Shown: positions 24,888 to 56,941, numbered from the stretch's first letter. The stretch: 64,000 nt of DNA from a bacterium (GCA_963631395.1 CAVGQN010000005.1:8446-72445), one strand, 5' to 3'. Translations and numbers: made by a program. The notes: a model not told the origin generated them from the sequence alone.

Positions 24888-25200
24888 CTTGTTTTGCTCT
24901 TGTCGTTTTGCAAAGTCTTGTCCTTTTGTTTTGCAAAGTCTTGTCCTTTTGTCTTGCAAAGTTTTCCCCCTATCCGGGAAGCCTCGTTTCTTTGCCCGAG
25001 AAAAGTTTGGTTTTCTTGCTCGCGAAGCTTAGTTTCTTTGCCCGAAAACCTTGGTTTTTCCCTTGGCAAAACGCCGTTGTTTTTTCCTGCTCGAAAAGCC
25101 CCGTTTTTTGACTCCAGTTAGGAAAAATTATTTTCCCAGTTGGGTTTCAAAAAAAATCCAGTTGGGCTGCAAAATTTTCCCAGTTGGGCTGCAAAATCCG
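24888..25200. repeat. Array of ~13 degenerate 22-27-bp tandem units (TTTTCyy...G.AAA...) filling the whole rsmH-ftsL gap
   Basis: T-tract starts at 24906, 24929, 24947, 24962, 24987, 25011, 25033, 25055, 25080, 25104, 25131 and 25175. Perfect internal duplications: TTTTGCAAAGTCTTGTCC (x2) and CCAGTTGGGCTGCAAAAT (x2). Confidence 0.8.
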
Positions 25201-26142
25201 CTAGCTCTCGGCCTTTCGGACGGCGACGCGGAGTTTTGCGCTTCGGGAGCGCGGATTCTCCTCCTGTTCCTCGGCGCTTGCCGTGATGGGCTTGTTGTTG
25301 ACGGCCTTGAGCGGCGCGATGACCCGGCCGTAGAAGTCCTGTTCCACCTTGCCGTCGGCGTGCCCGGATCGGATGACGTTCTTCACGATGCGGTCTTCGA
25401 GCGAATGGTAGGTCATCACAACCAGCCGGCCGTCGGGGGCGAGACACCGCACGGCGTCCTGCAGCATCTCCTCAAGCGCCTGCATCTCGTGGTTGACCTC
25501 GATGCGGAGGGCCTGGAAGGCCTGGGCCAGTTCTTTCTTCTGGGCCCGCGGGTCGACCAGGGGCAGCAGAGCTTCGCGCAGGTCGCCGGTCGTGGCGATG
25601 GGCCGGCTCTGACGCAGGCGGACCAGGGTCTGGGCGATGCGGCGGGCCTGGCGCAGTTCGCCGTAGAGGGCGAAGATGTGGGCAAGGTCTTCCTCTGTGT
25701 AATTGGCCAGTAGTTCGGCGGCCGTCATTCCCGCGCGGGTGTTCATGCGCATGTCGAGGGGCGCGTCCATGCGGAAGGCGAAGCCTCGCGAGGCGTCGTC
25801 CAGGTGGTGGCTCGACACGCCCAGGTCGGCGAGCAGTCCGTCAATGTGCTCCACGCCGTAGTAGCGCATCCAGTTGCGGAGATAGCGGAAGTTGCTGCGC
25901 ACGAAGGTGAACTTCCCGCCGCGGCTGGCGTCCGGGTCGTCAGACTCCGGGCCGAAGGCGTTGCGCTCGGCATCGGGGTCCTGGTCGAAGCTGTACAGGT
26001 GGCCGTTGGGGCCCAAGCGGTCGAGGATGGCGCGGCTGTGCCCGCCGCCGCCGAAGGTGACGTCCACGTAGATCCCGTCCGGGCGGATCTGCAGACCTTC
26101 CAGACATTCCTTGAGCATGACGGGGTTGTGGTATTCGGACAT
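25201..26142 (-). CDS. rsmH: 16S rRNA (cytosine1402-N4)-methyltransferase RsmH (MraW)
   Basis: 313 aa with HNPVMLKECLEGL, DVTFGGGGHS and DLGVSSHHLD. Confidence 0.95.
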   Translation of the reverse strand: MSEYHNPVMLKECLEGLQIRPDGIYVDVTFGGGGHSRAILDRLGPNGHLYSFDQDPDAERNAFGPESDDPDASRGGKFTFVRSNFRYLRNWMRYYGVEHIDGLLADLGVSSHHLDDASRGFAFRMDAPLDMRMNTRAGMTAAELLANYTEEDLAHIFALYGELRQARRIAQTLVRLRQSRPIATTGDLREALLPLVDPRAQKKELAQAFQALRIEVNHEMQALEEMLQDAVRCLAPDGRLVVMTYHSLEDRIVKNVIRSGHADGKVEQDFYGRVIAPLKAVNNKPITASAEEQEENPRSRSAKLRVAVRKAES

Positions 26143-26280
26143 AGACGCTGTTGTTTGTTGAGTTTGTACGTTGTCGATTTAGGGTGTAAAATTATGTATT
26201 TCCTCCGAGATGTGCAAGGAAAGGGTAAAAAAACTCGTCTTTTGCCGGCCTAAAATGAGTGCGTAAGGTGATTTTGTCAT

Positions 26281-31343: not shown

Positions 31344-34300
31344 ATGAAACAAAGATTACTTGTTGTTTCGGCAGCGCTGTTGCTCATGGGCTCGGCTGCC
31401 ATGGCAAAGGTAGTGGACGGCGTGCGCCAGTTCCCTAGCCTGCCCTTACCGAACTTCTCCGAACTGGTGCAGGACGGTACAACTGTCCAGTATCTCTACA
31501 ACGTCGATGCGCAGAGCTTCTTCCGCGGTGCCAACGACTGGATGACACGCGCTACGATGGACGATACATTGGGCTACAAATTCAAGATTAATGTCGAGGG
31601 CACGAATGTGGCTGGTGACACCACCTATGTGTCTCTGAGTGACTATGTCCTGAAGTTTAGCGCGTATTATAAGGTCTTCGCCGACGGAACCACCGGTATC
31701 TGGGTGGACAACAACAACGGCGCCAACGCCAACACTTGGGTTATTACTCCTGTTGAGGGTAGCAGCCTCTTTACTATCGGCAACGCAGCCTATCCCGGCA
31801 CCGTACTTGGCGGTTTCCGTGGCGATGTCGGCACTGTAGGCGTCAACGACTGTACTTCGGCCGGTATCTATCTGAACCTGGTCAAGCCGGACTCTGTCGG
31901 ACTCTGCGCAACGTGGGCTGCCGTCAGTGAGACTGACTATAAGGCGTATATCGATGCCAATACGGAGACCATCCGTACGTTGGTCGGTCAGTATAACAAG
32001 TCCGGTGAACTCAAAGCCAAGATTGACGAGTGCAAGCAGGCTGAAGGATTCACTGTGCCCGCCAAGTACACCACTATCTATGAGGACGAAAGCAAGACTG
32101 TTGCCGAGCTCGAGCAGGCTATCGCCGACCTCGCAGCCGACTATACGGACTTCGTCAACAACAAGGCCAGCCAGGCTACACTCGACAATCCTGTAGAAAT
32201 CACTTCGCAGATTGCCAACGTGGACGGCAGCTCTATCACCAACTGGACGCGTACGTTCACGGGCGAGGGCTCGACGGGCAGCCTTAAGTGCAACACATGG
32301 TCGACGGAAGGCGCCAGCGACGGAACCAACATGCTCACTCCTTTCATCGAGAACTGGGCGTCAGCGGGCAACAGCCTTTCCGACCAGATTGTTCAGCACG
32401 ACACCGTCAAGGTGGCTCCAGGTGCTTACCTCATCACGGCCAGGGTTCGTTGCTACAACGAGTCGTCGGGTGCAGAGTCCAGCAAGGGTTATTCGCTCTT
32501 CGCCAATAACAATAGCGTTGACTTGCACGAAGAGGGTGGTGACTACTTTACTTATAACAGCATGCTCGGCTACTGGAAGAGTGAGCCGTTCGAGGTCTAT
32601 GCCGTTGTCTCTGCTGACAGCTGCCTGACCTTCGGTATGAAGCTCGAGGGTGCCGACTTCAACTGGTTGGCTCACAAGGACTATCACATCTATGCTCTCG
32701 GACAGACGGACGAGGCGCTCAAGAAAGCCGCTTCTGCCAATCCGTCAGTAAAGAAGTATAAGAAAGATGACTACATCACCGCTTCTTTGCGCGATGAGTG
32801 GAATGTATGCGCAGACAAGTATCTCAATGGTGAGACTGCTGCCGAAATCATGCAGGCTCAGCTTGACCTCAATGCTCTTAAGGATACTATCAGCAAGAAT
32901 GCCGCAGCTTGGGCTTCTCTGCTTGTGGAGTACGAAGCTGCCAAGAAGGTGGCCGGTAACACTTCTATCTCCGGTGACGACGTCGCTGAATTGGCCGACT
33001 ATCTTGAGATGGAATTCGAGGAACTCCTGGAAGCAAAGGAGTTGACCACCGAAGAGATAAAGGCTGAAGAGGCTAAAATTTCGGAAATGCGTCAGGCTGC
33101 CATCCAGAACGGTCTTGCCGCCGGCACCGACTTCTCTGACTATCTGACCAACACCGACTTCTCGCAGGGTACAACGGGCTGGACATTCAACAAGATTTCC
33201 GGTTCGACTTGTGTCGCCAACGCTTCTGCCAAGTGTGCTGAGGGTTGGAATGCCAACTTCGATATCTACCAGATCGTAAGAAACGCACCTGTGGGTGTCT
33301 ACAAGATTACCGTTCAGGGCTTCTTCCGCAAGGGCCGTGGTGATGACGCCTGGAATCTCTACTATGACGAATACGGCGAGAAACTGGAGGAAGATCAACT
33401 TCCGGCTTCGATGGCCTATGTATACATGAACGACAACAAGACCCCGTTGAACAGTGTGTTTGACAATCAGGTTCCTAATGGCGAAGTTTATTCATCAGGA
33501 ACATACACTGATCCGAACGGTACCTACTGGTATCCGAATGACATGACGAGTGCAGGCGCCGCATTCGATGCAGGTTATTATCAGATGTCAGCCTTCGGAC
33601 TTGTAGCCCAGAAGGGTGATTCTCTCCGTATCGGCATGAAGGGCGATTTGTCAGGTGGTGACAACTGGGCTATCTTTACCCGTTGCAAGTTGACATACGA
33701 AGGCTTCGATGCCTCTATCATTCAGCCTGAGCTTGAGAAGGCTATCAAGGCTATGGATCTCACCGTCACCATGGGCTCTGAGGTTCTGACAAATGCACAG
33801 GAAGTCAAGGCTTCTGCTGAGAATGTCGACAAGACTGACGGAAAGGCTATGTTCGAAGCCCTGGCTGCCATCTATGCTGTCAACACCAAAGTCAGCGAGT
33901 CCGAAACTCTCTTTGCCAACTTGAAGGACAAGAACGAAGCTTTCCTTACCACTATCTCAGAGAGCCAGGCTGCCGAGGCAACCAAGACCGACGCCGCTAC
34001 TCTTTACAACGAGATTGCTGACGCAATCGATGGTGGCTCTTACACCAATGCTGACGCAGAGGCCGCCATCACCAAGATTGCCGAGATGACTGTCAAGCTG
34101 GCTATTCCTGACGCAGCTTCAAGTGCTTCTGACGAGAATCCTGTCGACATGACAAGCTTGCTGCAGAGCCCTGGCTTCGAGAAGGAAGGTTCTAACTCTG
34201 TAGAAGGCTGGACTTGCACAACCACAGGCTACAGCTTCGGTAACAGCACTACGCAGAAGGCTGCTTTGTGTATCGAGTTCTACGAGAAGACCTACGACTT

Positions 34301-34910
34301 CTATCAGGACATCACAGGCCTGCCGAACGGCATGTATCTGGTTAAGATGAAAGGTTTCTACCGCTATGGCACTACTTCGCAGGACTACGCACACTATGCA
34401 GCTGGTGAGGATGGTCTGGCCTACATCTACGCCATCGCCACCAACGATACCGTCAAGGGTCATGTCAAGCACCTGTGCAGCTACGAGACCAGCTTCGAGG
34501 AGCAGCAGGGTGTCGGCACAGAGACTACCTTCACCACCGGTAGCGATGTTGTACGGTATGTTCCTAACGACATTGTTTCTGCCCGCAACTACTTCGACTT
34601 GGGCTTGTTCGAGAACGGTGTCTATGTCAAGGTTACTGACAACAAGCTCCGCATCGGTATCAGCCAGGAAACAAGCGTTACCGGAGGTTGGATGATTATG
34701 GACGACTGGACGCTGACTTACTACGGTGAAAACAGCACCAAGGAGGAAGGTCTGGGTCTCGCCGCTATCGAGGACAATGCTCCTGTAGCTTCTGTCGAGA
34801 TGTTCAACATCAATGGCCAGCCAGTCAATGCTCTCCAGCAGGGTGTTACCCTGGTTCGCACGACTTCAAGCAACGGAACTGTAACCGTACGCAAAGTCAC
34901 TGTCAAGTAA
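31344..34910 (+). CDS. Large T9SS-secreted protein with three paralogous beta-sandwich (CBM-like) modules separated by helical linkers
   Basis: Start taken at ATG 31344 (MKQRLLVVSAALLLMGSAAMA); the track start at 31311 is GTG. Three modules share GW..., FDIYQ/YDFYQ, PxGxY, GFFR/GFYR, YxPNDMxSAxxxFDxGxY and WxIxDxxxLTYxG motifs. The CTD reads VEMFNINGQPV...VTVRKVTVK. Confidence 0.85.
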   Translation: MKQRLLVVSAALLLMGSAAMAKVVDGVRQFPSLPLPNFSELVQDGTTVQYLYNVDAQSFFRGANDWMTRATMDDTLGYKFKINVEGTNVAGDTTYVSLSDYVLKFSAYYKVFADGTTGIWVDNNNGANANTWVITPVEGSSLFTIGNAAYPGTVLGGFRGDVGTVGVNDCTSAGIYLNLVKPDSVGLCATWAAVSETDYKAYIDANTETIRTLVGQYNKSGELKAKIDECKQAEGFTVPAKYTTIYEDESKTVAELEQAIADLAADYTDFVNNKASQATLDNPVEITSQIANVDGSSITNWTRTFTGEGSTGSLKCNTWSTEGASDGTNMLTPFIENWASAGNSLSDQIVQHDTVKVAPGAYLITARVRCYNESSGAESSKGYSLFANNNSVDLHEEGGDYFTYNSMLGYWKSEPFEVYAVVSADSCLTFGMKLEGADFNWLAHKDYHIYALGQTDEALKKAASANPSVKKYKKDDYITASLRDEWNVCADKYLNGETAAEIMQAQLDLNALKDTISKNAAAWASLLVEYEAAKKVAGNTSISGDDVAELADYLEMEFEELLEAKELTTEEIKAEEAKISEMRQAAIQNGLAAGTDFSDYLTNTDFSQGTTGWTFNKISGSTCVANASAKCAEGWNANFDIYQIVRNAPVGVYKITVQGFFRKGRGDDAWNLYYDEYGEKLEEDQLPASMAYVYMNDNKTPLNSVFDNQVPNGEVYSSGTYTDPNGTYWYPNDMTSAGAAFDAGYYQMSAFGLVAQKGDSLRIGMKGDLSGGDNWAIFTRCKLTYEGFDASIIQPELEKAIKAMDLTVTMGSEVLTNAQEVKASAENVDKTDGKAMFEALAAIYAVNTKVSESETLFANLKDKNEAFLTTISESQAAEATKTDAATLYNEIADAIDGGSYTNADAEAAITKIAEMTVKLAIPDAASSASDENPVDMTSLLQSPGFEKEGSNSVEGWTCTTTGYSFGNSTTQKAALCIEFYEKTYDFYQDITGLPNGMYLVKMKGFYRYGTTSQDYAHYAAGEDGLAYIYAIATNDTVKGHVKHLCSYETSFEEQQGVGTETTFTTGSDVVRYVPNDIVSARNYFDLGLFENGVYVKVTDNKLRIGISQETSVTGGWMIMDDWTLTYYGENSTKEEGLGLAAIEDNAPVASVEMFNINGQPVNALQQGVTLVRTTSSNGTVTVRKVTVK

Positions 34911-35001
34911 TATGACACTTGAAATAATCTAAATTCCAAAAAATATGGGGACCGGGGAGGGTCGTCCGCCAGCTCCGGTTCCTGTATTTCATTTTCCGAC
35001 T

Positions 35002-37809
35002 ATGATAAACAATAGACTTGCCAACAGAAAAGAGTCCCGGCAGCAGAACAAGACTTCGCTCCAGGTCCAGATGGCATGCGGCATCCTCCTTATGTCGGTG
35101 GGACTGCAGTCGTGCGAGAAGGACATCCTGACCGGACAACCCGAGTGGTTGGGTAACTCCATTTACGAACGCCTGGAAGAAGGCATCGAGGTCAATGGCC
35201 AGGTGCAGAGCTTCGATATCACGCTTAACCTCATCAACGACTTGGGCCAAAAGGACGTGCTGTCCAAGACCGGCTCGAAGACTCTGTTCGTCACGACCGA
35301 CTCAGCCTATGCCGAGTGGTTCAGGACCAACGACTGGGGCGTGAGAAACTACGAAGACCTGTCGACATCGCAGAAGAAGCTTTTGCTCAACAACTCGATG
35401 ATCAACAATGCCTACCTGCTTGAACTCATGTCGAACGTGAGCGGCAACCCGCCGCAGGAAGGTCTCTGCATGCGCCGCCCGACGGCTTCCAGCATCTACG
35501 ACTCCATCCCCGTTATGACGGTCAGCGAGATGCCTGTCGATCCGCTCCTGAAGACTCGTCTCGACTCGTGGGCTTCTCTGCGCGAGGCCGGCAAGGATAT
35601 TCGTATACTCAAGAACGACGACGCAGCGCCGATGATTCACTTCCTGCCCGAATTCATGTCGAAAAACAAGATTACGGACAGCGACCTCGAGATTCTGACC
35701 AACGGCAACTCGAAGAGCATCGCCGACTCCTGGATCAATGGCAAGAAGGTAATAAGCACGGACCAGACCTGCAAGAACGGCTATATATATGTTGTGGACG
35801 GAGTGATCGAGTCCAACAAGAACATGGCCGAGATTATCAGCTCTGAGCCGCAGATGTCGCGTTGGGCCAGCATGCTCAACCGATTCAGCACACCGGTGCC
35901 AGCTACGGGTTCTACGCTCGCCAACTTCCAGCGTCTGTACAACACTTCCGATACGTGCTACGTGCTCCGCTATTTCTCAAAGGCTTCGCAAGGGGCAGCA
36001 GCGTTGAGCAAGACACCGCAGGGATACAGCGTTCCCGCCACGCTGACTTTCGACCCGGGCATGAACCAGTACATGTGGGCCAACACGATGGGCTACGACA
36101 TGCACTACGACGCCGGAGCCATGATCGTGCCGACCGACGAGGCACTCGCTACATGGTGGGACAACGCAGGCAAGGGCCTGCAGCAGGAGTACGGCACCTG
36201 GGAGAATGTGCCTGCCCTGACTATTTCAAAACTTCTTAATGTCAACATGCTTTCGTCGTTCGTCGATGCCGTACCTTCCAAGTTCGGCTCTATCGTCGAT
36301 GACTCGAAAGTGGAACTCGGCATCGAGCCCGAGGATGTAGTGAAATGCTACATGGGCTGCAACGGCGTGGTTTACCTCGTCAACAAGGTGTTCGGCCCGA
36401 GCGAATACAGCTCGGTCGTCTATCCGGCCCTGGCGCACCAGAGTATCATGGGCGTCATTTACTATGCTATCGACAACTATGATTTCGGACCGTTCCTCAA
36501 CTCTATGGAGTCGGAGTTCAGTCTGATTTTGCCATACAACGTGACCCAAAGCTATGACGGCGAGCACGAGGTGCTTCTTTATCTCGACCCGTCATCGTAC
36601 GGCCTCTCTACTCAAGTCATGTACGAATTCTATTTCGACGACGAGAGCCAGATGCCGAAGTGCGACCGCTATCAGGTTACCATCGACTCTTTGACCCACG
36701 AACTTACCTACATGAACAAGTTGCCTGAGCCTTCGGCCGACGCTTCGAGCACAAGCGGCGTCATCAACAACCGCCTCAGCGACTTGATCGACAACTCGAT
36801 TATCGTCGGTCTGCTCAAGCCCGGCCAGGAGTACTACAAGACCAAAGCCGGCAGCGTCATCCGCGCCGTGACTTCCGACCCGCGTCAGTCTGTCACCTTC
36901 CAGGGCGGTTACCAGATGGAAACCGGCGAGAGCATTGTGGTCGACAGGACGAACATCTACGACTTGACCAAGGAAACCAATGGCAAGGGTAACGGTATTT
37001 CCTACGGCGTAGGCGATTCAATCGGCCGCAGCCTTTGCATTCCGTTCACGGCTTCCAAGTCCGTTTACCAGATTCTGAAAGAAGCCGACAGCGACGACGC
37101 TTCGACTTCCAAGCTCTTCTTCAAGTTGTTGTCGGAAGACCCGACCACCGACGCCCTCCTGGCTTCGGAGACGGGTAGCGGCACAAAGTACTATTGCGCC
37201 AACGACCAGTCGAACAAGAACATCCGCCTCTTCGACAACTACAACTACACGGTCTATGTGCCTGCCGATTCGTCTATACAGAACATGATAGACATGGGCT
37301 ACTTGCCGACATGGGACGACTATGAGGCCTACAGCGACGCCGTCGACAGCGGTGACAAGAATGCCGTTGCCGCTCAGGACAGCATCGCCGAAATCATCCA
37401 CAGTTTCCTCCGCTATCACATCCAGGACAATGCCGTCTACATCGGCGGCGAGTCCGTGACTGGTGCCAAGTACGAGTCGTCGAAACTCAACACCAGGAAC
37501 AACCGATTCTTCTCTCTCGAAGTGACAGCATCCAATGACGGCATGACCATCAAGGACGCCTGGACAATCAGCCAGGAGAATGCGGGCAAGACGGGTGTGA
37601 CACGCAAGGTGATTACGGACAATGGTTTCTACAACAAGACGAGCCGCGAGTATTGGTTTACGACCAAGGCCACGTCGGCTGTCGTTGCCGCCAACCGCCA
37701 GATCTATTCTTCTTCCAATGCCGTTGTGCATCAGATAGACGGTGTCCTGCTGTATGACAGGGACGCTCAGTTCACCAGTTGGAAATCCCATTTGCCTGAG
37801 ACGAAATAA
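35002..37809 (+). CDS. Fasciclin (FAS1)-like surface lipoprotein, large
   Basis: Start taken at MINNRL (35002). Lipobox LMSVGLQSC, then CEKD. FAS1-like segments (DLGQKDVLSKTGSKTLFVTTDSAY; YNYTVYVPADSSIQNMI). It lies immediately upstream of SusC. Confidence 0.7.
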   Translation: MINNRLANRKESRQQNKTSLQVQMACGILLMSVGLQSCEKDILTGQPEWLGNSIYERLEEGIEVNGQVQSFDITLNLINDLGQKDVLSKTGSKTLFVTTDSAYAEWFRTNDWGVRNYEDLSTSQKKLLLNNSMINNAYLLELMSNVSGNPPQEGLCMRRPTASSIYDSIPVMTVSEMPVDPLLKTRLDSWASLREAGKDIRILKNDDAAPMIHFLPEFMSKNKITDSDLEILTNGNSKSIADSWINGKKVISTDQTCKNGYIYVVDGVIESNKNMAEIISSEPQMSRWASMLNRFSTPVPATGSTLANFQRLYNTSDTCYVLRYFSKASQGAAALSKTPQGYSVPATLTFDPGMNQYMWANTMGYDMHYDAGAMIVPTDEALATWWDNAGKGLQQEYGTWENVPALTISKLLNVNMLSSFVDAVPSKFGSIVDDSKVELGIEPEDVVKCYMGCNGVVYLVNKVFGPSEYSSVVYPALAHQSIMGVIYYAIDNYDFGPFLNSMESEFSLILPYNVTQSYDGEHEVLLYLDPSSYGLSTQVMYEFYFDDESQMPKCDRYQVTIDSLTHELTYMNKLPEPSADASSTSGVINNRLSDLIDNSIIVGLLKPGQEYYKTKAGSVIRAVTSDPRQSVTFQGGYQMETGESIVVDRTNIYDLTKETNGKGNGISYGVGDSIGRSLCIPFTASKSVYQILKEADSDDASTSKLFFKLLSEDPTTDALLASETGSGTKYYCANDQSNKNIRLFDNYNYTVYVPADSSIQNMIDMGYLPTWDDYEAYSDAVDSGDKNAVAAQDSIAEIIHSFLRYHIQDNAVYIGGESVTGAKYESSKLNTRNNRFFSLEVTASNDGMTIKDAWTISQENAGKTGVTRKVITDNGFYNKTSREYWFTTKATSAVVAANRQIYSSSNAVVHQIDGVLLYDRDAQFTSWKSHLPETK

Positions 37810-37819
37810 CTAACCGATT

Positions 37820-40800
37820 ATGAAGACAAATATGCTATATAGAACAGTAGCCTTGCTGTCCTGTCTGCTGCTTTCGTGCACCATACAGATTATGGCACAG
37901 CAGATAACCTCCGTACACGGTACGGTGGAGGACGAGTTCGGTCCGTTGATGGCTGCTACCGTAGTGGAGATTGATGCCAATGGCCGTGTGATTTCTTCGG
38001 CACTGACCGACATGAACGGCAACTTCACTATGAAGATCATGAACCCGAAGGATAAACTCCGCATTCAGTATGTGGGTTTGAACACCAAGACGCTGCCCAT
38101 CGACCGTACGACCTACAAGGTCTTTATGGAGTCCGGACAGACGCTGAAGGAGGTGACCGTCGTACGCGAGAAACGTATGGAGGGCAACTCGCTCCACATT
38201 CCCGAGCGTGAGGTCTCTTTCGCCAAGCAGTCCATCTCCGCTCAGGAGTTCGAGGGCTTGGGTATCAACACCATCGACGAGGCTCTGCAGGGCCGTATCG
38301 CCGGTTTGGACATTATTTCCCTTTCGGGTAACCTCGGTTCGGGATCTACGATGCGTCTGCGCGGTGCTTCGTCCTTGTCTTCCCTCACGAACGAGAACCC
38401 GCTGGTTGTCGTCGACGGCAATGTGTGGGATGTCGATATGTCGAACTTCGACCTCGCTGCCAGCAATGACGAGAAGTTCGCCGAGTTGCTGAACATCAAT
38501 ACGGAGGATATCGCCTCCATCACGGTGCTCAAGGACGCTTCGGCTACGGCTATCTACGGTTCGCAGGGCGGTAACGGCGTCATCGAGTTGACGACCAAGC
38601 GCGGTATGCGTGGCAAGCCGAAGCTGACTTACACGATGAAGCTGACCAGCACCTACCAGCCTAAGGGCATGGACCTGCTGAACGGCGACGACTACACGAT
38701 GCTGCTCAAGGAGTCTTACTTCAACCCGCAGCAGAGTGACGCTGCCTCCAATATCCCGGAGATTAACTACGACCCGACCTTCTCCGAGTACGAGCAGTAC
38801 AACAACAATACGGACTGGCGTGATGCCGTCACACAGTGGGGTCTGCGTCAGAACCACTATCTGACCATCTCCGGCGGTGGCGAGCGTGCCACGTTCCGTA
38901 TCTCGGGCGGTTTCGACAACGAGACCGGTAGTATCATCAAGCAGGAACTGAGCCGTTTCTCTACGCGTGCCAACCTCGACTACAACGTCAGCAAGCGCAT
39001 CCGCGTCCAGACGAACTTCTCGATGACCTATACCAAGAACTACCGCAACTCTGACGGCTTGCTGTCCATTGCCCAGAAGAAGATGCCTAATATGAGCATC
39101 TACGAGCAGGACCCCAATACGGGCGAAAACACCAACCGCTACTACAACATGCTGCAGAGCGGTGCCAACATCGGTAGTGACGCCTTCAAGGACGACCAGC
39201 GCAATTATGTCAACCCGATTGCCTCTGCCCATTTGGCCAAGAACATCCAGACGACCTACAACCTGTCGCCTGAGTTGGTGCTCAACTACGAGCTGCTCGG
39301 CCTGGACGAAAACCACACACGTCTGACGTGGAGAGGCCAGGTCTATATGAATATATATAATGAGTATGTGGACCGTTACTATCCGTCTGAACTCGTTTCG
39401 ACAACCTGGACTTCCGGTCACAACACTTCGTCTTCTGCCAGCAACAAGAGTGTGTCTTTGACCACCAAGCATACGCTGACCCTCGTTCCTTACTTCTCCA
39501 ACAAGGACCATTCGATTATGGCTTTGGCCCGTATGGAGTTGAACTCGGGCAATTCGACGGGACAGTCTACGTCGGGCAGCGGTCTGCCTTCAGGCAGCAT
39601 CACAAGTCCTGATGCCGGCGGCAAGAACACGGGCTTGAGTTCCAGCTACGCCGAGTGGCGCTCGCTCTACTTCACTCTTTCGGTACACTACGCCTACAAG
39701 AGCCGTTACATGCTTGACGTTTCCGCCCGTGCCGATGCTACGACCAAGTTCGGTCCGGATAAGCGCTGGGGTGTGTTCCCCTCTGTTTCTCTGCGATGGA
39801 ACATGGTGGACGAGGCCTTCATGGAGGGCCTGAAGGAGAAGGGCCTTTCAATGTTGTCTATCCGTCCCAGTTGGGGTATTACGGGTAAAGCGCCCAACAA
39901 GGATTACCTCTACGTTTCCCAGTACGGCTCAGCCTCTTCTTACTTGGGTGTCCAGACCATGGCTCCGCTCAACCTGAAGCTCACCAACCTGCAGTGGGAG
40001 ACCAGAAACCAGTATAACCTCGGTTTCGACCTCGGATTTATGGACGACCGTCTGACCACAACGTTTGAGGTCTACAAGTCCACCACATCCGACATGTTGA
40101 TGTCTAACTTCCGCATCCCGTCCAATACCGGTTTCCAGACGGTCGCTTACCGCAACTGCGGCAAGATGAGCAATACGGGTTGGGAATTCTATGTCAACAC
40201 GAACCGACTGGTCCGCAAGGGTAAGTTTACGATGGATTTCAACATGAACTTCGGCAACAACCGCAACGAAATCCTTGAGATGGACCAGACGGTGCTCGAC
40301 AACCTCAACTCTACCTTCGACAATGCCAACCGCGATGTGCTCACCCGCATCCAACTGCACAACCCCTTCGGTTCTATCTACGGCTTCCGGAGCAAGGGCG
40401 TCTACCAGTACGAGTACGAGACCTTTGCCGCTCTGAGCCCAGACGAGCAGACGGCATTCCTGGCAGCCGGCAAGACCGCCCCTGTGGCTCTCAATGCCGC
40501 CGGTGGTGTCATCTACAACGAGAACGGCGAGCCTATCCGCATGATGTTTAACTACTCCAACGACGGTTCGGGCAAGAACTACTACTTCAAGGGTGGCGAT
40601 GCCCACTATGAGGATGTCAACAACGACGGACAGATCAACGCCCTCGACATTGTCTACCTCGGTTCGTCGCTGCCTAAGTTGCTCGGCGGTTTCGGCTTCT
40701 CGTTCAACTACGGAGACTGGCGTTTGAGCACTCAGTTCACCTATCGTGTCGGCAACAAGATTCTGAATCTTGCCCGTCTCGATGCTGAGGCTATGAACAA

Positions 40801-41167
40801 CAACAACAACCAGAGCCAGGCCGTCAACTACCGCTGGCGCAAGGAGGGCGATGTGACCTCTATCCCGCGTGCCATGTACGGTTCGACGACCAACTACAAC
40901 ACGCTGATCAGCGACCGTTTTGTTGAGAATGGTTCTTACCTGCGTATGAGCTATGCTCAGCTCTCTTACTCGCTGAAGAAGGAGTGGGTCAAGAAAGCAC
41001 ACCTCAACAAGGTCAGCTTCTACTTGAGTGCCAACAATCCGCTTATCCTTACAAAATACACGGGTGTGGATCCGGATATCAGCAGCAGCGGCTATGGCCC
41101 GGCTACGGATAGCGCACAGACCCCGCGTGCCCGTTCATTTACATTCGGTTTGACAGTCGACTTCTAA
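37820..41167 (+). CDS. SusC/RagA-family TonB-dependent outer-membrane transporter
   Basis: 1115 aa. Signal peptide, carboxypeptidase-regulatory-like N-domain (VHGTVEDEFGPLMAATVVEIDANG), plug (IDEALQGRIAGLDI...LRGASSL...PLVVVDG), a long barrel, and a terminal aromatic residue (TVDF). Confidence 0.95.
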   Translation: MKTNMLYRTVALLSCLLLSCTIQIMAQQITSVHGTVEDEFGPLMAATVVEIDANGRVISSALTDMNGNFTMKIMNPKDKLRIQYVGLNTKTLPIDRTTYKVFMESGQTLKEVTVVREKRMEGNSLHIPEREVSFAKQSISAQEFEGLGINTIDEALQGRIAGLDIISLSGNLGSGSTMRLRGASSLSSLTNENPLVVVDGNVWDVDMSNFDLAASNDEKFAELLNINTEDIASITVLKDASATAIYGSQGGNGVIELTTKRGMRGKPKLTYTMKLTSTYQPKGMDLLNGDDYTMLLKESYFNPQQSDAASNIPEINYDPTFSEYEQYNNNTDWRDAVTQWGLRQNHYLTISGGGERATFRISGGFDNETGSIIKQELSRFSTRANLDYNVSKRIRVQTNFSMTYTKNYRNSDGLLSIAQKKMPNMSIYEQDPNTGENTNRYYNMLQSGANIGSDAFKDDQRNYVNPIASAHLAKNIQTTYNLSPELVLNYELLGLDENHTRLTWRGQVYMNIYNEYVDRYYPSELVSTTWTSGHNTSSSASNKSVSLTTKHTLTLVPYFSNKDHSIMALARMELNSGNSTGQSTSGSGLPSGSITSPDAGGKNTGLSSSYAEWRSLYFTLSVHYAYKSRYMLDVSARADATTKFGPDKRWGVFPSVSLRWNMVDEAFMEGLKEKGLSMLSIRPSWGITGKAPNKDYLYVSQYGSASSYLGVQTMAPLNLKLTNLQWETRNQYNLGFDLGFMDDRLTTTFEVYKSTTSDMLMSNFRIPSNTGFQTVAYRNCGKMSNTGWEFYVNTNRLVRKGKFTMDFNMNFGNNRNEILEMDQTVLDNLNSTFDNANRDVLTRIQLHNPFGSIYGFRSKGVYQYEYETFAALSPDEQTAFLAAGKTAPVALNAAGGVIYNENGEPIRMMFNYSNDGSGKNYYFKGGDAHYEDVNNDGQINALDIVYLGSSLPKLLGGFGFSFNYGDWRLSTQFTYRVGNKILNLARLDAEAMNNNNNQSQAVNYRWRKEGDVTSIPRAMYGSTTNYNTLISDRFVENGSYLRMSYAQLSYSLKKEWVKKAHLNKVSFYLSANNPLILTKYTGVDPDISSSGYGPATDSAQTPRARSFTFGLTVDF

Positions 41168-42942
41168 TGCCTTTACTTACAATGAAGAGAAATATATTAA
41201 ATATGTCGGCAGCATTGCTGCTCTCAGCAACCACTCTGAGCAGTTGCAGCGATTTCCTGGAAATCGAGCCGCAGAACATCGTCACCATCGACCAGTTCTG
41301 GAATGAAGAGTCGGACGTCGAGAGCGTGGTGAACGGTTGCTACAGTGCCATGCAGTCGTATGGCATGATAGCCAGAATGATGATTTGGGGAGAGTTCCGT
41401 TCGGAGAACATCGTCTCTTATGCCAACACCATCGAGAGTGATGTCAACCTGGAGCGTATTCTCGACGAGAACATTACGGCCAACAACTCCTATACCGATT
41501 GGACGGAGTTCTATCAAGTCATCAACCGGTGCAACATCATCATCGAGCGCGCTCCGTTGGTGGCCGAGAATGACCCTGCCTACACCTCCAGCGAGATGTA
41601 TGCACACATTGCCGAGGCTACGGCCATCCGTTCGTTGTGCTATTTCTACCTGATCCGCACGTTCCGCGATGTGCCTTACACTGAGGAGGCTTTCCTCGAC
41701 GACAATCAGAAGCTGGACCTCGAGCCGACTACCTTTGAGGAGGTGCTTGCCAAGCTAATTAGTTCGCTCGAAGCTGTCAAGGACTATGCCGTGACCAAGT
41801 ATCCGGAGTCTACAGGCTATGCAAGGTATTATGACACGGGACGTATCACCCGTACCGCTATCTATGCCATGCTTTGCGAAATGTATCTGTGGCAGAATGA
41901 CTATGCCAACTGTATCAAATATGCCGACCTGGTCATCGACCGCAAGTTGGAAGAGGCTGAGCAGAGCGAGGATTTCTTTACCTCTGACTTCAGCGACTTC
42001 AACGGTTATCCGCTGATTTCTTCCCGCCTCAACAATATGTCGACCTATTTCGGTGCTGCATTCAACAGCATCTTCGTCACCGGCAACAGTTCGGAGAGCA
42101 TACTCGAACTTACCTTCGTCGGCACCGACGGCACGACGTTGTCCAACGGCCCTGTCAGCAACTTCTACGGCAACACCGGCAGGTCTCCTTTCTGCAAAGG
42201 CTCTGACTATATCTCCGAGGATGTAACTGCCGCCACGCCTATAGTCTTCAACAACAAGTACGATGGCCGAGCATACGAGAACTTCTTCTATCAGGGAGGG
42301 GAAGTGCTTTGCATCAACAAGTATTCCAACAGCACGGGTGTCAACCTTTACGACCCGTCTGTCTCAACCTCGTTCTTTAAGAACAGCGCTTGGGGTACAT
42401 TCTACGATACGTATGGTTCGGGTTATGACTCGCGCAACAAGTCGAACTTTATCCTTTACCGTCTGACCGACATCATGCTGCTCAAGGCCGAGGCTTTGAC
42501 CCAGCAGATCAGCGACGAGGCAGTGCTTAACGAGGAAGATCTCGTTCTCCGCGACAAGGCATTCTCTTTGGTCAACGCTGTCAACAAGCGCTCTTTGTAC
42601 CAGACTACACTCAAGGACACGCTTGTGATGAGCAACTACGCCACCAAGCTTGACATCACCAATCTGGTGTATGACGAGCGTGAGCGCGAGCTGATGTTCG
42701 AGGGCAAGCGTTATTACGACTTGGTGCGTCGTGCCCGCCGTGAGGGCAATACCTCTTATCTCAAGAGCAAGGTCAAACTGAAGAGTACAGACAATGCTTC
42801 CGTCATCGAGAACCAGTTCGAGAAGATGGACCGTATGTACTGGCCTTACAACCTCGACGAGACCAAGGTCAACAAGAACCTCAAGCAGAATTCGGCCTTC
42901 AGTTCGGGTGAGAACAGCAGTTATTCAAAAACCGCCAATTAA
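41167..42942 (+). CDS. SusD/RagB-family nutrient-binding lipoprotein
   Basis: 591 aa. Lipobox LSSCSDF. SusD-like motifs (RSLCYFYLIRTFRDVPY; ERERELMFEGKRYYDLVRR). The start overlaps the SusC stop (TAATG); an alternative start is MKRNIL at 41182. Confidence 0.9.
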   Translation: MPLLTMKRNILNMSAALLLSATTLSSCSDFLEIEPQNIVTIDQFWNEESDVESVVNGCYSAMQSYGMIARMMIWGEFRSENIVSYANTIESDVNLERILDENITANNSYTDWTEFYQVINRCNIIIERAPLVAENDPAYTSSEMYAHIAEATAIRSLCYFYLIRTFRDVPYTEEAFLDDNQKLDLEPTTFEEVLAKLISSLEAVKDYAVTKYPESTGYARYYDTGRITRTAIYAMLCEMYLWQNDYANCIKYADLVIDRKLEEAEQSEDFFTSDFSDFNGYPLISSRLNNMSTYFGAAFNSIFVTGNSSESILELTFVGTDGTTLSNGPVSNFYGNTGRSPFCKGSDYISEDVTAATPIVFNNKYDGRAYENFFYQGGEVLCINKYSNSTGVNLYDPSVSTSFFKNSAWGTFYDTYGSGYDSRNKSNFILYRLTDIMLLKAEALTQQISDEAVLNEEDLVLRDKAFSLVNAVNKRSLYQTTLKDTLVMSNYATKLDITNLVYDERERELMFEGKRYYDLVRRARREGNTSYLKSKVKLKSTDNASVIENQFEKMDRMYWPYNLDETKVNKNLKQNSAFSSGENSSYSKTAN

Positions 42943-42956
42943 TAGTCCGTCTAACT

Positions 42957-45056
42957 ATGAAAAAGTTTTTATATACAATCTCCTGTCTCGTTTGTGCCGC
43001 TGCATCTATGGTGCTGCCTACTTCATGTAACGACGATCCGGACAGTGAACACTACTACTCGTTCGATGGTCAGATGATGAGCGAGTATCTGCAGGAGCGC
43101 GAACAGTACAGTTTGTTCTCGCAGGTCGTAATTAGGGCAGACCTCATGGATTTGCTTTCGACCTATGGACACTATACCTGTTTCTGCCCGAACGACTCGG
43201 CCATGCAACTGTTCATGCAGACCAAGGGTTGGTCAACGATTGATGACCTGACCGACGCCGACTGCGACACCATCGCCCGTACCCATCTGGTCAATGTGAT
43301 GTACTCTACCTTCGAAATGAAGGACGGCGTACTTGCCACTCAGAACATGAACAAGCGGCCTATCGAAATTACGCACGGCCTGGATAACAACCAGAATAGT
43401 GTCGTCATCCTTAACGGCGAGGCTATCGTTCTCTTTGAATCGCAGAACGACTCGGTGGAGAACGGCATTATGCAGCCTATCGACAAGGTCCTGGAAAGCA
43501 ACACTAACACGCTGCCTGACCTGATGGCTACCAACCCGACCATTTCCATCTATTGCGAAGCCCTTTCGAAGACGGGCCTGGCTAGCCAGATGATACGCTA
43601 CAAGGATGACTCGTATGTCGATACTGAGGTGTTCTATGACTACATCACCGGTTCCAATATCCACGAGGCTGCCACTCCTCCTGACGATCACCTGTACGGA
43701 TATACAGCTTTCGTAGTCCCCGATTCCGTACTCGAGGCGAAATACGGCATTACTGATTTGAAGGGTCTCTACGAACTTGCTTGCAATATATACGATAACA
43801 TCAGCCCGTCTGATGACCCTGACGGATTGTGGCGCACGGATGCTAGTGACGAGAGCCATAGTTTCGACAATCTGTCTGACCCGAAGAACCCGCTGTACCG
43901 CTTCATGGCCTACCACCTGCTCAACCGCAATGTGCAGGGCTGGAACTTCCTCACCGTACGTGACGACTTCGGTACTATCACCAACATGATGAACCCGACG
44001 GACTGGTATCCGACATTCCTCACCTCAGCCATGCTGAAGGTCGAGCACCTGACGGCCACCAAGTGGGTCGGCACCGAGACGGCTGTAGGCGGACGCTACT
44101 TGAACCGCCGCACCGACGACTTGTATACAGGCGATAAGGCTATTCGTGGCGTGCAGGTTGCCAACACGAGTACTGACAAGGAGTACAAGCATATTGCACT
44201 CAACGGCATCTATTTCTATATTGACGATGTGCTCAAGTTTGACTCTGATGTCCAGAACAAGGTCGACAACTGCCGCATCCGTATGGACTTCTCGACGGTC
44301 TTCCCGGAGGTAATGACCAACGACATGCGTATGAACGGTGACCGTACCAAGGACGATGACAATGTTAGCACCTCTTACGACCACACCTTCAAGTACGGAC
44401 GCAACTACTACTTCCCGGACGGTTATCTCGATGGCGTAAGTGTAGGCGGTAACGGTTACTTCATCTACCGTCGTCCGCGTCAGGGATATTGGTCTCTGCA
44501 TGGTGACGAGTTCATCTGCCAGGGCAACTACGATGTGTCTTTCCGCTTGCCACCTGTTCCGTTTGAGGGCGACTGGCAGATTCGTCTTGGCTACGCCGCT
44601 ATGACCATCCGCGGCATTGCCCAGATTTACTTTGGTACCAGTGACCCCGTCACGGGAAGCGTAACTTACGTGCCTCAGGGTATTCCGTTGGATATGACCC
44701 GTACGCTAGAGCACTCTTCCATCCTTGGAACGGACTTCAAGACCTATACGACTATGTCCGATGACGAAAAGACCGAAGACAGGAAGATCCTGAAGAACCT
44801 CGGCTTCTATCGTGGCGCCAATGGCGGCTACCGCACCGGCGGTTCTGACCAGCAGCACTTCTCGGATATTGCCAATACACTGCGCATCGTGCTGTGTACG
44901 GCACACTTGAAGCCCGGTCAGGATTACTATCTCCGTGTGCGTGCCGTGTCTTCCAAGCAGGGCAACAACAATGAGGTCATGCTCGACTATCTTGAACTCG
45001 TTCCGAAGAGCGTCTATGGCGTTACTGACGAGGGAGCACAGGAAGACGACCTGTAA
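42957..45056 (+). CDS. Fasciclin (FAS1)-like surface lipoprotein
   Basis: 699 aa. Lipobox LPTSCNDD (acidic surface-export-type residues after Cys). FAS1-like N-domain (FSQVVIRADLMDLLSTYGHYTCFCPNDSAMQLF). Confidence 0.7.
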   Translation: MKKFLYTISCLVCAAASMVLPTSCNDDPDSEHYYSFDGQMMSEYLQEREQYSLFSQVVIRADLMDLLSTYGHYTCFCPNDSAMQLFMQTKGWSTIDDLTDADCDTIARTHLVNVMYSTFEMKDGVLATQNMNKRPIEITHGLDNNQNSVVILNGEAIVLFESQNDSVENGIMQPIDKVLESNTNTLPDLMATNPTISIYCEALSKTGLASQMIRYKDDSYVDTEVFYDYITGSNIHEAATPPDDHLYGYTAFVVPDSVLEAKYGITDLKGLYELACNIYDNISPSDDPDGLWRTDASDESHSFDNLSDPKNPLYRFMAYHLLNRNVQGWNFLTVRDDFGTITNMMNPTDWYPTFLTSAMLKVEHLTATKWVGTETAVGGRYLNRRTDDLYTGDKAIRGVQVANTSTDKEYKHIALNGIYFYIDDVLKFDSDVQNKVDNCRIRMDFSTVFPEVMTNDMRMNGDRTKDDDNVSTSYDHTFKYGRNYYFPDGYLDGVSVGGNGYFIYRRPRQGYWSLHGDEFICQGNYDVSFRLPPVPFEGDWQIRLGYAAMTIRGIAQIYFGTSDPVTGSVTYVPQGIPLDMTRTLEHSSILGTDFKTYTTMSDDEKTEDRKILKNLGFYRGANGGYRTGGSDQQHFSDIANTLRIVLCTAHLKPGQDYYLRVRAVSSKQGNNNEVMLDYLELVPKSVYGVTDEGAQEDDL

Positions 45057-54572: not shown

Positions 54573-56941
54573 ACAGAATGGTTAAGGCAGCCTCATCTTT
54601 CTTCCTGTTGGCTGCGTTGTTTTCGCAAGTCCTTGCACAAAATGCGCCTACAGTGCATACAGATACTCGTTTTGCCCGTGGTTCGGATCAGGCTTTCGGT
54701 CGTGCTACTTTTCAAGCCAATGGAGGAAACACTATCAAGGAGCGAGGCTTTTGCTGGAGTTCGTCGACATCCAATCCGAGTATTGAGGACGAACATTCGA
54801 CATCGAGTTTGTACAACAATGGCAATATCTATTGGATGCACGGTTTGACTCCGGCTACAAAATATTATGCGCGTGCTTATGCAGTTGCGACTGATGGGTC
54901 GGTGGGCTATGGTGAGGTTATCAAGATTGTCACTTTGCCAAAAGGCAAGATAGCATGGAACTATGATGACGGAGGCTCTGATGCCGAGGATACACGTATC
55001 CGGGCTGCCGTGGAAGAGGCCGTGAACTATTGGAACAGTCTGACCAGTATCCCGTCCCTGACTTTGAGCGTACATTACGGTTCGGGCACACCGACGGCCG
55101 ATTGCAGTTATGGTGGCTGGATGCGTGTCGGCCCGAATTCCTCTTATCAGAAAACCGGAACCATTATGCACGAGGCTCTGCATGCCATTGGCGTCGGAAC
55201 GACAGACTTGTGGTACGGGTCGTCATCGCCACTTCGTTCGGGTAGCGGCACAGGACAGTGGTTGGGCGATCGGGCTACGGAATTAGTCCGTTTCTGGGAC
55301 AACAGTGCGTCTTCGGTAATCAATGGCGACAAGACACACCTTTGGCCTTACGGTATCAATGGTGCTCATGAGGATACGGGGTCAAAAGTCCTATACATCG
55401 GCTGTAGTCTGATAGCTCAGGCTGTCGGAGAGGACGGTCTGCCGAGTTCTTCCGGCGGGCAGGCATTCGGTACACCTTACTATTCGTTTGACCAGGAGGA
55501 TACAATCAAGTATTACATACGTAACGAGAAGGAGGACTACGGACTGAAGACATCGTTCCTGGTCGAGACTGCAGACCACAGTCTGCAATGGCGTGAGATG
55601 AGTTCTGATGAGGCTTTCGCCAACGATTCTGCGGCTTGGTATGTTACTTTTACGCCTGACAATCAGTACTATCAGTTCCGTAATGCCTCGACCGGATATT
55701 ATATGACATATAGTGCTACAGGTGTCAATGGTATCGTTACCAAAAGCGGGTCGATAACAGGAAATACGAACTTCCAGTTGATGCGTTCACGTATAGATGT
55801 GACTTCTACAGAAGGAGTAGTAATCTCGCCCAAGCGCGGATACTGGATTATCCATCCGGACAATAGCAGCTCAACACCAGGATGCCTGGCTGCCACCTCT
55901 GGCGGCAAGACCACAGCGACAAACTTTAGTCTGTTGAATACCGCTACAGCCCAGCGTTGGGTTATTTTGACGGCCGAGGAAACAAGGACCATGGACAATG
56001 CCGGTTTGTTGGCGGCACGCGCAGCGTTCGACAAGAACAAAACGACCGTTATGGAATGGTATCAGACACCGCATCAAGAGCTGACGGAGGGCGCAGACCA
56101 GACATTGCTGAACACCTTGGAACTTTTGACTACACAGAACAGTGAGACCTCTGATGCTGCCGAGGCCGAAGGCTTGGCTGAGGATGTGTTGACTGCGGGC
56201 AAGACTTTCCTGTCCAGTGTCTGCGTGTCGGATATAAATAGCCCATTTGATTTGACGGCTCTCATTGTCAATTCGGATTTCGATACCAATACTGCAGGTT
56301 GGACGATGTCTGCCGGTAGTTCATACGGCAATCAGGAAGTCGAGTATTACGAGAAATATGTCAATTGTATACAGACGCTTGCAGCAATGCCTAAGGGAAC
56401 TTATGCCCTTAAGGCTTCCGGATTCCAACGTCCTGGAAAATATGCTTCTGTCTACACCTCTTATGTGACGGCAGGGCTCGATAGTGTGAAGTGCAAACTG
56501 TATATCGACAAGGCTTCGCAAGGTGTTTCGTTGAAGAATCTGATGGCTGACCGTACGGCAACTAGCCTCCATTCGGGCGGTGTCAAACTGTCAGACAATA
56601 CATATGTCCCCAACACAATGGCCAGTGCCCGTGCTTGGTTCGATGCCGGTTATTATGATAATGTCTCGACCCAATATAGGGCAGAGGGTAATATGAAGAT
56701 AGGCGTAACAGGACCGAATGCCTACAGTTCCTGGTGGACAGTGATAGACCACTTCCGCTTGTTCTATTACGGACCTTTGACGTTGGACGAAATCAGTCAG
56801 CTGTCTTCGGTTGAAGAGGTGCAGACCGAGCAGAAGTTCGCTGCATCTGTGCTGTACAATCTGCAAGGTCAGCGTGTGACCCGACCATCGACGGGCATAT
56901 TTGTTCGTAACGGTAAAAAGATTATATTGTTGAACCGTTGA
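54569..56941 (+). CDS. Secreted zincin-like (HExxH) protein with a beta-trefoil-like middle region, the shared CBM-like module and a T9SS CTD
   Basis: 790 aa with a signal peptide. GTIMHEALHAIGVG contains HExxH. The middle region ends in AQRWVI. The C-terminal module is paralogous to those of 31344-34910 (TYVPNTMASARAWFDAGYYDN; WWTVIDHFRLFYYG). CTD (LYNLQGQRV...KIILLNR). A 4-nt overlap links it to the upstream gene. Confidence 0.7.
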   Translation: MNRMVKAASSFFLLAALFSQVLAQNAPTVHTDTRFARGSDQAFGRATFQANGGNTIKERGFCWSSSTSNPSIEDEHSTSSLYNNGNIYWMHGLTPATKYYARAYAVATDGSVGYGEVIKIVTLPKGKIAWNYDDGGSDAEDTRIRAAVEEAVNYWNSLTSIPSLTLSVHYGSGTPTADCSYGGWMRVGPNSSYQKTGTIMHEALHAIGVGTTDLWYGSSSPLRSGSGTGQWLGDRATELVRFWDNSASSVINGDKTHLWPYGINGAHEDTGSKVLYIGCSLIAQAVGEDGLPSSSGGQAFGTPYYSFDQEDTIKYYIRNEKEDYGLKTSFLVETADHSLQWREMSSDEAFANDSAAWYVTFTPDNQYYQFRNASTGYYMTYSATGVNGIVTKSGSITGNTNFQLMRSRIDVTSTEGVVISPKRGYWIIHPDNSSSTPGCLAATSGGKTTATNFSLLNTATAQRWVILTAEETRTMDNAGLLAARAAFDKNKTTVMEWYQTPHQELTEGADQTLLNTLELLTTQNSETSDAAEAEGLAEDVLTAGKTFLSSVCVSDINSPFDLTALIVNSDFDTNTAGWTMSAGSSYGNQEVEYYEKYVNCIQTLAAMPKGTYALKASGFQRPGKYASVYTSYVTAGLDSVKCKLYIDKASQGVSLKNLMADRTATSLHSGGVKLSDNTYVPNTMASARAWFDAGYYDNVSTQYRAEGNMKIGVTGPNAYSSWWTVIDHFRLFYYGPLTLDEISQLSSVEEVQTEQKFAASVLYNLQGQRVTRPSTGIFVRNGKKIILLNR

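Follow-up and report, generated by a model that had tools for sequence, protein, structure and literature searches.

What part might a large protein that matches no named family play in a SusC/SusD-type locus? The question is raised by the gene at positions 31344-34910 (+ strand) of a 64,000-nucleotide stretch of bacterial DNA (GCA_963631395.1, CAVGQN010000005.1:8446-72445), the whole of which we refer to as the window. Members of the Prevotellaceae are the dominant fibre degraders of the rumen and of many human guts, yet annotation is lacking for a large part of the machinery on their surface. A previous reading of this DNA, made from the sequence alone (hereafter the sequence-only reading), had described the gene product as a type IX secretion system (T9SS) protein in which three beta-rich modules are displayed on helical stalks, encoded within a polysaccharide utilisation locus (PUL). 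Prediction and comparison indicate that the protein consists of a signal peptide, a beta-trefoil-like head, three units that each join a helical bundle to a jelly-roll of ~180 amino acids, and a short beta tail. We see about an even chance that this is a secreted, probably surface-attached, multivalent protein by which a Prevotellaceae bacterium captures polymer for the fasciclin/SusC/SusD uptake locus encoded next to it.

Predicted architecture of the protein

The only long open reading frame (ORF) on the + strand here is 31311/31344-34910, which encodes 1188 amino acids when read from the ATG at 31344; an antisense ORF of 217 amino acids within it was judged mechanical. When the whole 1188-residue protein was compared with Pfam and NCBIfam (E ≤ 0.01), no family was matched. 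We modelled the full-length protein with AlphaFold from an alignment of 26 family sequences, and obtained a mean predicted local distance difference test (pLDDT) score of 82.8. The model contains beta-sandwiches at residues 301-453, 614-787 and ~950-1128, and helices at 196-276, 456-590 (five helices) and 790-927. Together with the sequence comparisons it suggests the following layout.

31344..31409, + strand: Sec-type signal peptide, residues 1-22 (MKQRLLVVSAALLLMGSAAMA), read directly from the sequence; no lipobox cysteine
31461..31928, + strand: predicted N-terminal 12-strand beta domain, beta-trefoil-like (lectin-like), residues 40-195; model strands at 49-195 and Foldseek matches
31929..32213, + strand: helical linker 0, residues 196-290; model helices 196-231, 240-247 and 253-276
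32214..32702, + strand: module 1, residues 291-453, predicted divergent type-1 beta-sandwich; block-mean pLDDT ~70-93
32703..33143, + strand: helical segment 1, residues 454-600; model helices 456-464, 480-494, 499-537, 545-564 and 569-590
33144..33704, + strand: module 2, residues 601-787, canonical type-2 module, predicted beta-jelly-roll; family hidden Markov model (HMM), E = 1e-68, and stand-alone model
33705..34163, + strand: helical segment 2, residues 788-940; model helices 790-803, 812-826, 833-873, 878-897, 902-920 and 923-927
34164..34733, + strand: module 3, residues 941-1130, canonical type-2 module; family HMM, E = 5e-67
34734..34907, + strand: short C-terminal beta tail, residues 1131-1188, candidate T9SS sorting signal; three model strands at 1150-1187

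The cleavage site of the signal peptide was placed by eye; residues 1-28 have pLDDT values below 50 in the model, where residues 4-15 form a helix. Foldseek searches with the full-length model recovered the beta-trefoils WSCP (5hpz/6s2z) and HA33 (5b2h/4lo0) at E-values of 1.5e-3 to 4.4e-3, which is consistent with the 12-strand N-terminal domain. A sequence profile of that domain, searched against the Protein Data Bank (PDB), gave a single weak match, to HA17 (E = 0.12).

The linkers are rich in alanine, glutamate and lysine, as the sequence-only reading had noticed (A 18-19%, E 10-12%, K 7-10%; 18%, 12% and 10%, respectively, in helical segment 1), and they are helical in the model. Helical segments 1 and 2 are related to each other (hhalign probability 93%, E = 2.9e-7, 117 columns), and the C-terminal ~50 residues of linker 0 resemble the end of segment 2 (93.8%, E = 1.8e-7); this mutual relatedness indicates that the repeating unit is a helical segment followed by a module. 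The proposed 'helical stalks' are indeed helical, but their shape is predicted to differ from what the term implies: the segments of four to five helices, taken with the fold match to Cry protoxins described below, suggest compact bundles and not long single coiled coils.

Homology among the module copies

All three modules had been thought to share one set of motifs, and for modules 2 and 3 this stands. BLASTP aligned these two at E = 3e-12 (27% over 186 amino acids), with a Smith-Waterman z-score of 17. A further copy was found by the family HMM at the end of the neighbouring protein encoded at 54569-56941, which carries a HEALH motif.

56249..56812, + strand: fourth copy of the type-2 module, residues 561-748 of the 54569-56941 protein; family HMM, E = 3e-50, followed by a tail of ~42 residues at 56813-56938

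This fourth copy matched module 3 at E = 2.5e-19 by BLASTP (z = 27.3) and module 2 at E = 9e-11 (z = 18.5), and the reuse of the module next door, already claimed by the sequence-only reading, is thus well founded. Smith-Waterman significance was assessed with 300 shuffles, in which the scores observed for pairs among module 2, module 3 and the 54569-56941 copy were never reached.

Module 1 does not fit so simply. Compared pairwise with module 2, module 3 and the 54569-56941 copy it stays at chance level (z ~0 against shuffles, and negative by BLASTP); an HMM built from canonical type-2 copies misses it; and it is without the FDIYQ, GFFR and YxPNDM motifs. It is instead a distinct and well-conserved type, which we term type 1 (NTWS..PFIENW..LSDQ..APGAY..YNES..TYNSML..NW), and it occupies the same position in most orthologues. 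The type-1 and type-2 profiles are nevertheless related (hhalign probability 95%, E = 3.9e-8, 120 columns; in a second comparison 94.3%, E = 9.6e-8, 134 columns), and in the orthologues P0008, P0010 and P0013 a canonical type-2 module stands at the first position (E ~1e-56). This profile relationship and the type-2 modules of these orthologues together imply that the three modules are homologous and that the listed motif set is present in two of them; formal self-alignment recovers the internal repeat between modules 2 and 3, but module 1 joins them at the profile-profile level only. Among orthologues, modules 1 and 2 show 53-58% identity (module 2 being the highest, with a mean of 58%), module 3 43% and the linkers 30-43%.

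The last ORF of the window (61544 to the end) had also been credited with a related module. We rejected it as a member of the family: it has in common only a generic N-terminal motif of ~16 columns ('N-x-D/G-F-E..GW'), hhalign gives probabilities of just 15% (type 2) and 0.3% (type 1), and the shuffle z-score is 4 at best.

Fold of the module and its nearest relatives

Modelled on its own from 27 module sequences, module 2 reached a pLDDT of 94.2 and a predicted template modelling (pTM) score of 0.88. On this model the type-2 module is, with high confidence, a predicted beta-jelly-roll of the class of carbohydrate-binding module (CBM) families 4/9/16/22/61/70, and the modules that the sequence-only reading had called beta-rich acquire a predicted fold. 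Foldseek searches of the module model against the PDB returned moderate matches only (template modelling scores of 0.3-0.6), including CBM70 (4d0q, E = 8e-5) and TmCBM61 (2xom/2xon, E = 1e-4), with further matches to phage tailspike C-terminal modules, CBM4, CBM16, CBM22, CBM29 and Cry1Ac; no solved structure came closer than these weak CBM matches. In a viral structure library, the module resembled the CenC-like CBMs of phage tail fibres, which are receptor-binding modules.

Among all PDB sequences, the module profile matched TmCBM61 (2xom_A) at E = 1.8e-4 (24 bits), and no other PDB family at E < 0.001; a second galactanase, 9fli_A, was matched at E = 2.3e-3. The best stretch of the TmCBM61 match lies at profile positions 4-62, with the last strand weakly matched in addition; in all, about one third of the module is covered. 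When TmCBM61 was superposed by Foldseek (probability 1.00), the full-length model reached a target-normalised template modelling (TM) score of 0.62-0.63 and the module model one of 0.53-0.54. TmCBM61 uses three contiguous tryptophans to bind beta-1,4-galactan, which forms side chains on rhamnogalacturonan I (RG-I) (PMC12309604). In the module family W18 and W180 are the only invariant tryptophans; position 40, which is W or Y in many members, aligns with a tryptophan of TmCBM61, that of its 'NFW' sequence. Given that the match is weak and partial, we do not file the module under CBM61, and the sequence-only reading, which had assigned it to no named CBM family, is upheld in this respect. The type-1 profile matched nothing among PDB sequences, and at E ≤ 0.01 neither PF02018 (CBM_4_9) nor any other named Pfam or NCBIfam domain matched the 31344-34910 protein.

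Across the 27 module copies, which share ~25-30% identity, F11, W18, E38, Q48, G56, Y58, R67, G169, W180 and L188 are invariant, and G17, P54, F65, Y99, P136, N137, M139 and F146 are nearly so. The type-1 consensus, as read by eye from the hhalign alignments, has like residues opposite E, Q, Y and N-x-M, and the conserved stretch 'P-N-x-M-x-S-A..A-F..G-x-Y' lies in a helix/loop insertion specific to the family. That this set of polar and aromatic residues persists suggests a shared site; from the strand register assigned by DSSP we infer that E38, D45, Y47, Q63, F65 and R67 may lie together on the same side of the beta3-beta5 sheet.

Size and distribution of the module family

We counted the family as clusters at 50% identity. 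An exhaustive profile search of 1.84 billion representatives returned 5,936 clusters at E ≤ 1e-3, of which 4,506 lay at or below 1e-10 and 1,966 at or below 1e-30. The top 150 are mostly ~1,100-1,350 amino acids long with three matched stretches. All of the close homologues surveyed (42/42) are without a precomputed Pfam domain and, where named, are called 'hypothetical protein'; when the module profile was run against word-indexed proteins, nine short fragments without domain information were the only result. In our searches, the literature on Prevotella, T9SS and utilisation loci yielded nothing on the module family, and that on utilisation loci with fasciclin proteins, whether from Prevotella or associated with SusC, nothing relevant.

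We scanned one-genome-per-species contigs with an alignment of seven module sequences and retained the 80 best loci (L002-L081). Where a taxon was named, nearly all belonged to Prevotella, Prevotellaceae, Bacteroidaceae or Bacteroidales metagenome-assembled genomes; the sources were rumen, horse, chicken and human gut, and one cultured species, Xylanibacter muris, was represented.

Gene neighbourhood

On the + strand the window carries, in order, a GH43 gene, the 31344-34910 gene, fasciclin, SusC, SusD, two fasciclins, a second SusC/SusD pair, a ricin/LamG protein, the HEALH-motif protein, PL11 and Glyco_hydro_cc. The PUL setting named by the sequence-only reading was borne out by Pfam and NCBIfam, which identify a SusC/SusD locus with GH43, PL11 and glycoside hydrolase (GH)-like genes. 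Around the first SusC/SusD pair stand three large fasciclin proteins whose N-termini are of the lipoprotein type (34945-46769), and the genes that follow the 31344-34910 gene most closely are these, all named from Pfam/NCBIfam.

34945..37809, + strand: fasciclin lipoprotein, 954 amino acids; lipobox cysteine
37820..41167, + strand: SusC
41167..42942, + strand: SusD; lipobox cysteine
42957..45056, + strand: second fasciclin protein; lipobox cysteine

The order 31344-34910-type gene, fasciclin, SusC (and then SusD and fasciclin) was conserved in 56 of the 80 related loci, and seven loci ended too early for their neighbours to be judged. In 13 of the 80 a second, longer gene of the 31344-34910 type lies in tandem. 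This second gene, of ~1420-1490 amino acids, sits between the ~1190-residue gene and the fasciclin gene in many Prevotella genomes including that of Xylanibacter muris (the loci include L017, L021, L027, L030-L033, L046, L056, L064 and L071); the window has a single copy.

Several neighbours have features of their own. The 54569-56941 protein (790 amino acids) has its single HEALH motif at residue 201, in a domain for which neither Pfam nor PDB sequences gave a match; next come a ricin-like beta-trefoil region (a weak RicinB match at residues 355-420), a helical linker, the type-2 module and the short tail. Its N-terminal ~75 residues resemble the N-terminal region of the BT0360 arabinanase model, and a search of PDB sequences with this protein returned nothing useful. 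The PL11 rhamnogalacturonan lyase (56960-61537, + strand) is unusually long at 1525 amino acids and has passenger-associated transport repeats (PATR) in its C-terminal half. The last ORF (61544-64000, + strand), incomplete at the window end, has a Glyco_hydro_cc catalytic core, to which a CenC-like module and a helical region are joined; its full-length relatives (L037, L044 and L073; ~1150-1270 amino acids) extend beyond this into another, degenerate beta module and then a C-terminal tail, and such relatives adjoin type-2-module proteins in several loci. Upstream, at ~13800-26200 on the - strand, lies an ordinary and unrelated cluster of division and cell-wall (dcw) genes (MraW, a penicillin-binding protein transpeptidase, Mur ligases, a MraY-like GT4 and MurG).

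Export and surface attachment

Lipobox cysteines are found in the fasciclin and SusD proteins, and the GH43, 31344-34910, ricin/LamG, HEALH and PL11 proteins have plain signal peptides, that of the 31344-34910 protein being without a cysteine. Such a split is expected for lipoprotein versus type IX sorting in Bacteroidota. A similar C-terminal tail of ~30-40 amino acids is present on ORFs 28460-30625, 31344-34910, 51840-54572, 54569-56941 and 56960-61537; it follows roughly the pattern 'aromatic-x-hydrophobic-x-G-x-x-V...G-x-Y/hydrophobic...G-x-K...K/R', as in ..AYDLQGRRV..GMYAADGKVIIVR and ..YYSITGQPM..GIYICNGRKFIKK. In the tail of the 31344-34910 protein, residues G1158, G1167, K1184 and K1188 are at least 90% conserved in the family. 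This common tail may be a short variant of the T9SS signal and, as the protein has no lipobox, surface attachment would need it.

We searched the tails with Por_Secre_tail (PF18962), the profile of the type A C-terminal sorting domain, which we take to be the counterpart of TIGR04183. It did not match the 31344-34910 tail, either in the last 58 residues (E ≤ 1) or in the last 90 (E ≤ 10); it weakly matched 2 of 15 family tails (best E = 0.0037) and was not reported for the other proteins of the locus at E ≤ 0.01. No T9SS machinery genes lie within the 64-kb window. Because the profile misses the tail, T9SS export is something we infer from the plain signal peptide without lipobox and from the common tail, and the T9SS label attached by the sequence-only reading is weakened to that extent.

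Weighing the interpretations

How might these parts act together? Judging by fold and context, the jelly-rolls, and perhaps the trefoil too, would bind polysaccharide, and a pectic substrate of the RG-I, arabinan or galactan type is likely because PL11, GH43 and GH-like genes adjoin. The helical bundles would serve as rigid spacers, with several binding sites held at a distance from the outer membrane, and the C-terminal tail would lead to type IX secretion and surface attachment. With binding modules, spacers and a surface tail, the protein could supply the secreted enzymes and the SusC/SusD transporter with captured polymer. Several lines of evidence argue for such a role in capture: a domain layout drawn from a confident model; the fold matches to CBMs and to CenC/CBM4-class phage receptor-binding modules; the profile matches to TmCBM61, which belongs to a GH53 galactanase, and to the 9fli galactanase; modules that are better conserved than the linkers, with a polar/aromatic signature kept at 25-30% identity; the conserved gene order, with GH43, PL11, Glyco_hydro_cc and ricin/LamG neighbours; and the signal peptide without lipobox combined with a tail common to the non-lipoprotein members of the locus.

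Other observations weigh against polymer capture. The TM-scores to solved CBMs are low (only 0.4-0.63 by Foldseek), the sequence link to CBM61 is weak and partial, the tail goes unrecognised by Por_Secre_tail, and 17 of the 80 related loci are without fasciclin/SusC neighbours. The surface glycan-binding proteins (SGBPs) of the SusE/F type are lipoproteins, whereas the 31344-34910 protein is not. Atypical family members, moreover, fuse the modules to Peptidase_C10 plus Inhibitor_I69, Y_phosphatase3, dockerin/cohesin, BspA-type leucine-rich repeat (LRR), CBM_4_9 and Y_Y_Y domains. Some of these (among P0048, P0153 and P0156) carry three to six modules with a dockerin and a weak cohesin that falls below the Pfam cut-off; one also has a C10 peptidase and I69 inhibitor, and others have tyrosine-phosphatase-family domains. 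Fusion to a C10 peptidase, a phosphatase or dockerin/cohesin means that the target of the module need not be a plant glycan, and the fusion partners point to a general targeting or adhesion module over a substrate-specific CBM.

One may accordingly postulate a general adhesin or targeting protein, an unlikely reading but the one that fares best among the alternatives. In this scenario the modules would tether whatever is fused to them to a non-dietary target, for example glycans or proteins on host or microbial surfaces or the cell's own surface polysaccharide, and the link to an uptake locus would be secondary. The fusions to peptidase plus inhibitor, phosphatase, dockerin/cohesin and BspA LRR domains favour it, as do the presence of the module in the HEALH-motif protein, the phage tail-fibre receptor-binding modules among the fold neighbours and the loci in which the SusC/SusD context is missing. 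The order of fasciclin, SusC and SusD is strongly conserved, however, the neighbouring enzymes are of the plant-cell-wall type, and the closest sequence relative of the module is a galactan-binding CBM.

A structural or self-assembly scaffold, in which units of bundle and beta-roll pack protein to protein, form a surface coat or hold partners, and in which the jelly-rolls have no ligand role, seems to us quite improbable. It is favoured by the best whole-chain fold matches of the model, which are complete Cry protoxins: Foldseek matched five full-length protoxins at E-values of 2e-16 to 1.5e-13 (4w8j, 8w7n and 9h9a are among the PDB entries), including Cry8Ba2 (2e-16), Cry1Aa (1.3e-14) and Cry1Ac (3.6e-14). 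Extension domains V and VII of the protoxins are CBM-like beta structures (PMC10926538), and cohesin and dockerin domains do occur in some family members. Against a scaffold stand a global TM-score of only 0.11-0.13, which is so low because relative domain placement differs, and an invariant polar signature of a kind more often seen at functional sites than on packing surfaces. We also rejected any link to Cry protoxins at the sequence level: the full-length family profile, searched against all PDB sequences, listed no Cry protein up to E = 10 and gave only noise from helical proteins.

Finally, that the jelly-rolls are themselves catalytic, for example as an unrecognised beta-jelly-roll lyase or hydrolase, would account for the E, Q, Y and R that are invariant and the Y, N and M that are nearly invariant across very divergent copies, but is highly improbable, since the top 50 fold matches are CBMs and receptor-binding modules with no PL7, PL18 or GH16-type structure among them, and since three tandem copies and fusion to other enzymes are the usual pattern of a binding module. 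PL7 lyases have a YFKAGxYxQ motif that the module's 'AFDAGYYQ' loosely recalls; a PL7-like reading was rejected on the fold matches and on predicted secondary structure, the 'AFDAG' stretch being modelled as a helix and not a strand.

We return, then, to a multivalent capture protein as the preferred interpretation. A bolder version of it is a tentative proposal that we would not yet favour: the ~190-residue module may found a new CBM family, distantly rooted in the vicinity of CBM61, that counts its members by the thousand in Prevotellaceae of rumen and gut and has as its ligand a glycan of the pectic or arabinogalactan type; the modules would be borne by a T9SS-anchored, non-lipoprotein 'SGBP' of an undescribed fasciclin-type uptake locus, and its unit of bundle and beta-roll might share ancestry with the Cry extension. 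The fold class is already known, as are tandem CBM-like domains beside SusC/SusD; the module family, the related helical spacers in a non-lipoprotein, and the fasciclin-type locus headed by it appear to be undescribed in the libraries and literature that we searched. If the modules bind glycans, they would constitute a new CBM family, of use for metagenome annotation and as glycan probes, and would give a first handle on a conserved type of locus with the order 31344-34910-type gene, fasciclin, SusC, SusD, fasciclin. They would also show how bacteria with a T9SS construct large, spaced capture proteins where Bacteroides is known to use lipoprotein SGBPs.

Comparison with known systems

The module, by prediction, and CBM61 are both beta-sandwiches, and their weak, partial sequence match takes in an N-terminal 'N-P-x-F-E..G..W' strand, an 'xxxQ..lPxGvY' hairpin and a last 'W..DxF.L' strand; the specificity of CBM61 for beta-1,4-galactan on RG-I side chains also suits a locus with a PL11 lyase. 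The module here is ~45 residues longer, however, at ~190 amino acids against ~145-150, and CBM61 is without its extra helix/loops and conserved 'Y-x-P-N-x-M-x-S-A..A-F..G-x-Y' helix. In TmCBM61 the domain is appended to GH53, whereas the present modules follow one another, separated by helical spacers, along a protein that has no recognised catalytic domain. The likeness to the CenC-like families CBM4/9/16/22/27/70 consists of Foldseek E-values of 8e-5 to 5e-3 (4d0q, 1gui, 2zex/2zey, 4xuo and 1of3) and of generic N- and C-terminal strand motifs; TM-scores are only 0.3-0.6, and the module has its own family-specific insertion and invariant residues.

Domains IV and VI of Cry protoxins are helical bundles. 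Domains IV-VII of the protoxins and the 31344-34910 protein show the same alternation of helical bundle and CBM-like beta-roll, but the former help an insecticidal toxin to pack into crystals and the latter is a secreted protein of a nutrient locus in gut Bacteroidales, and the organisms and export routes differ. In view of the low global TM-score and the lack of a sequence match, we treat Cry protoxins as an architectural analogue, in fold only.

In its setting the protein resembles SusE/F-type SGBPs. Its gene lies near susC/susD, with one fasciclin gene between, and like them it is multi-domain and non-catalytic, with several CBM-like domains and a proposed role in surface polymer capture. 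The differences lie in gene position and in construction: SusE/F-type genes are downstream of susC/susD and have products with Ig-like linkers, whereas the 31344-34910 gene is upstream and the predicted spacers of its product are helical.

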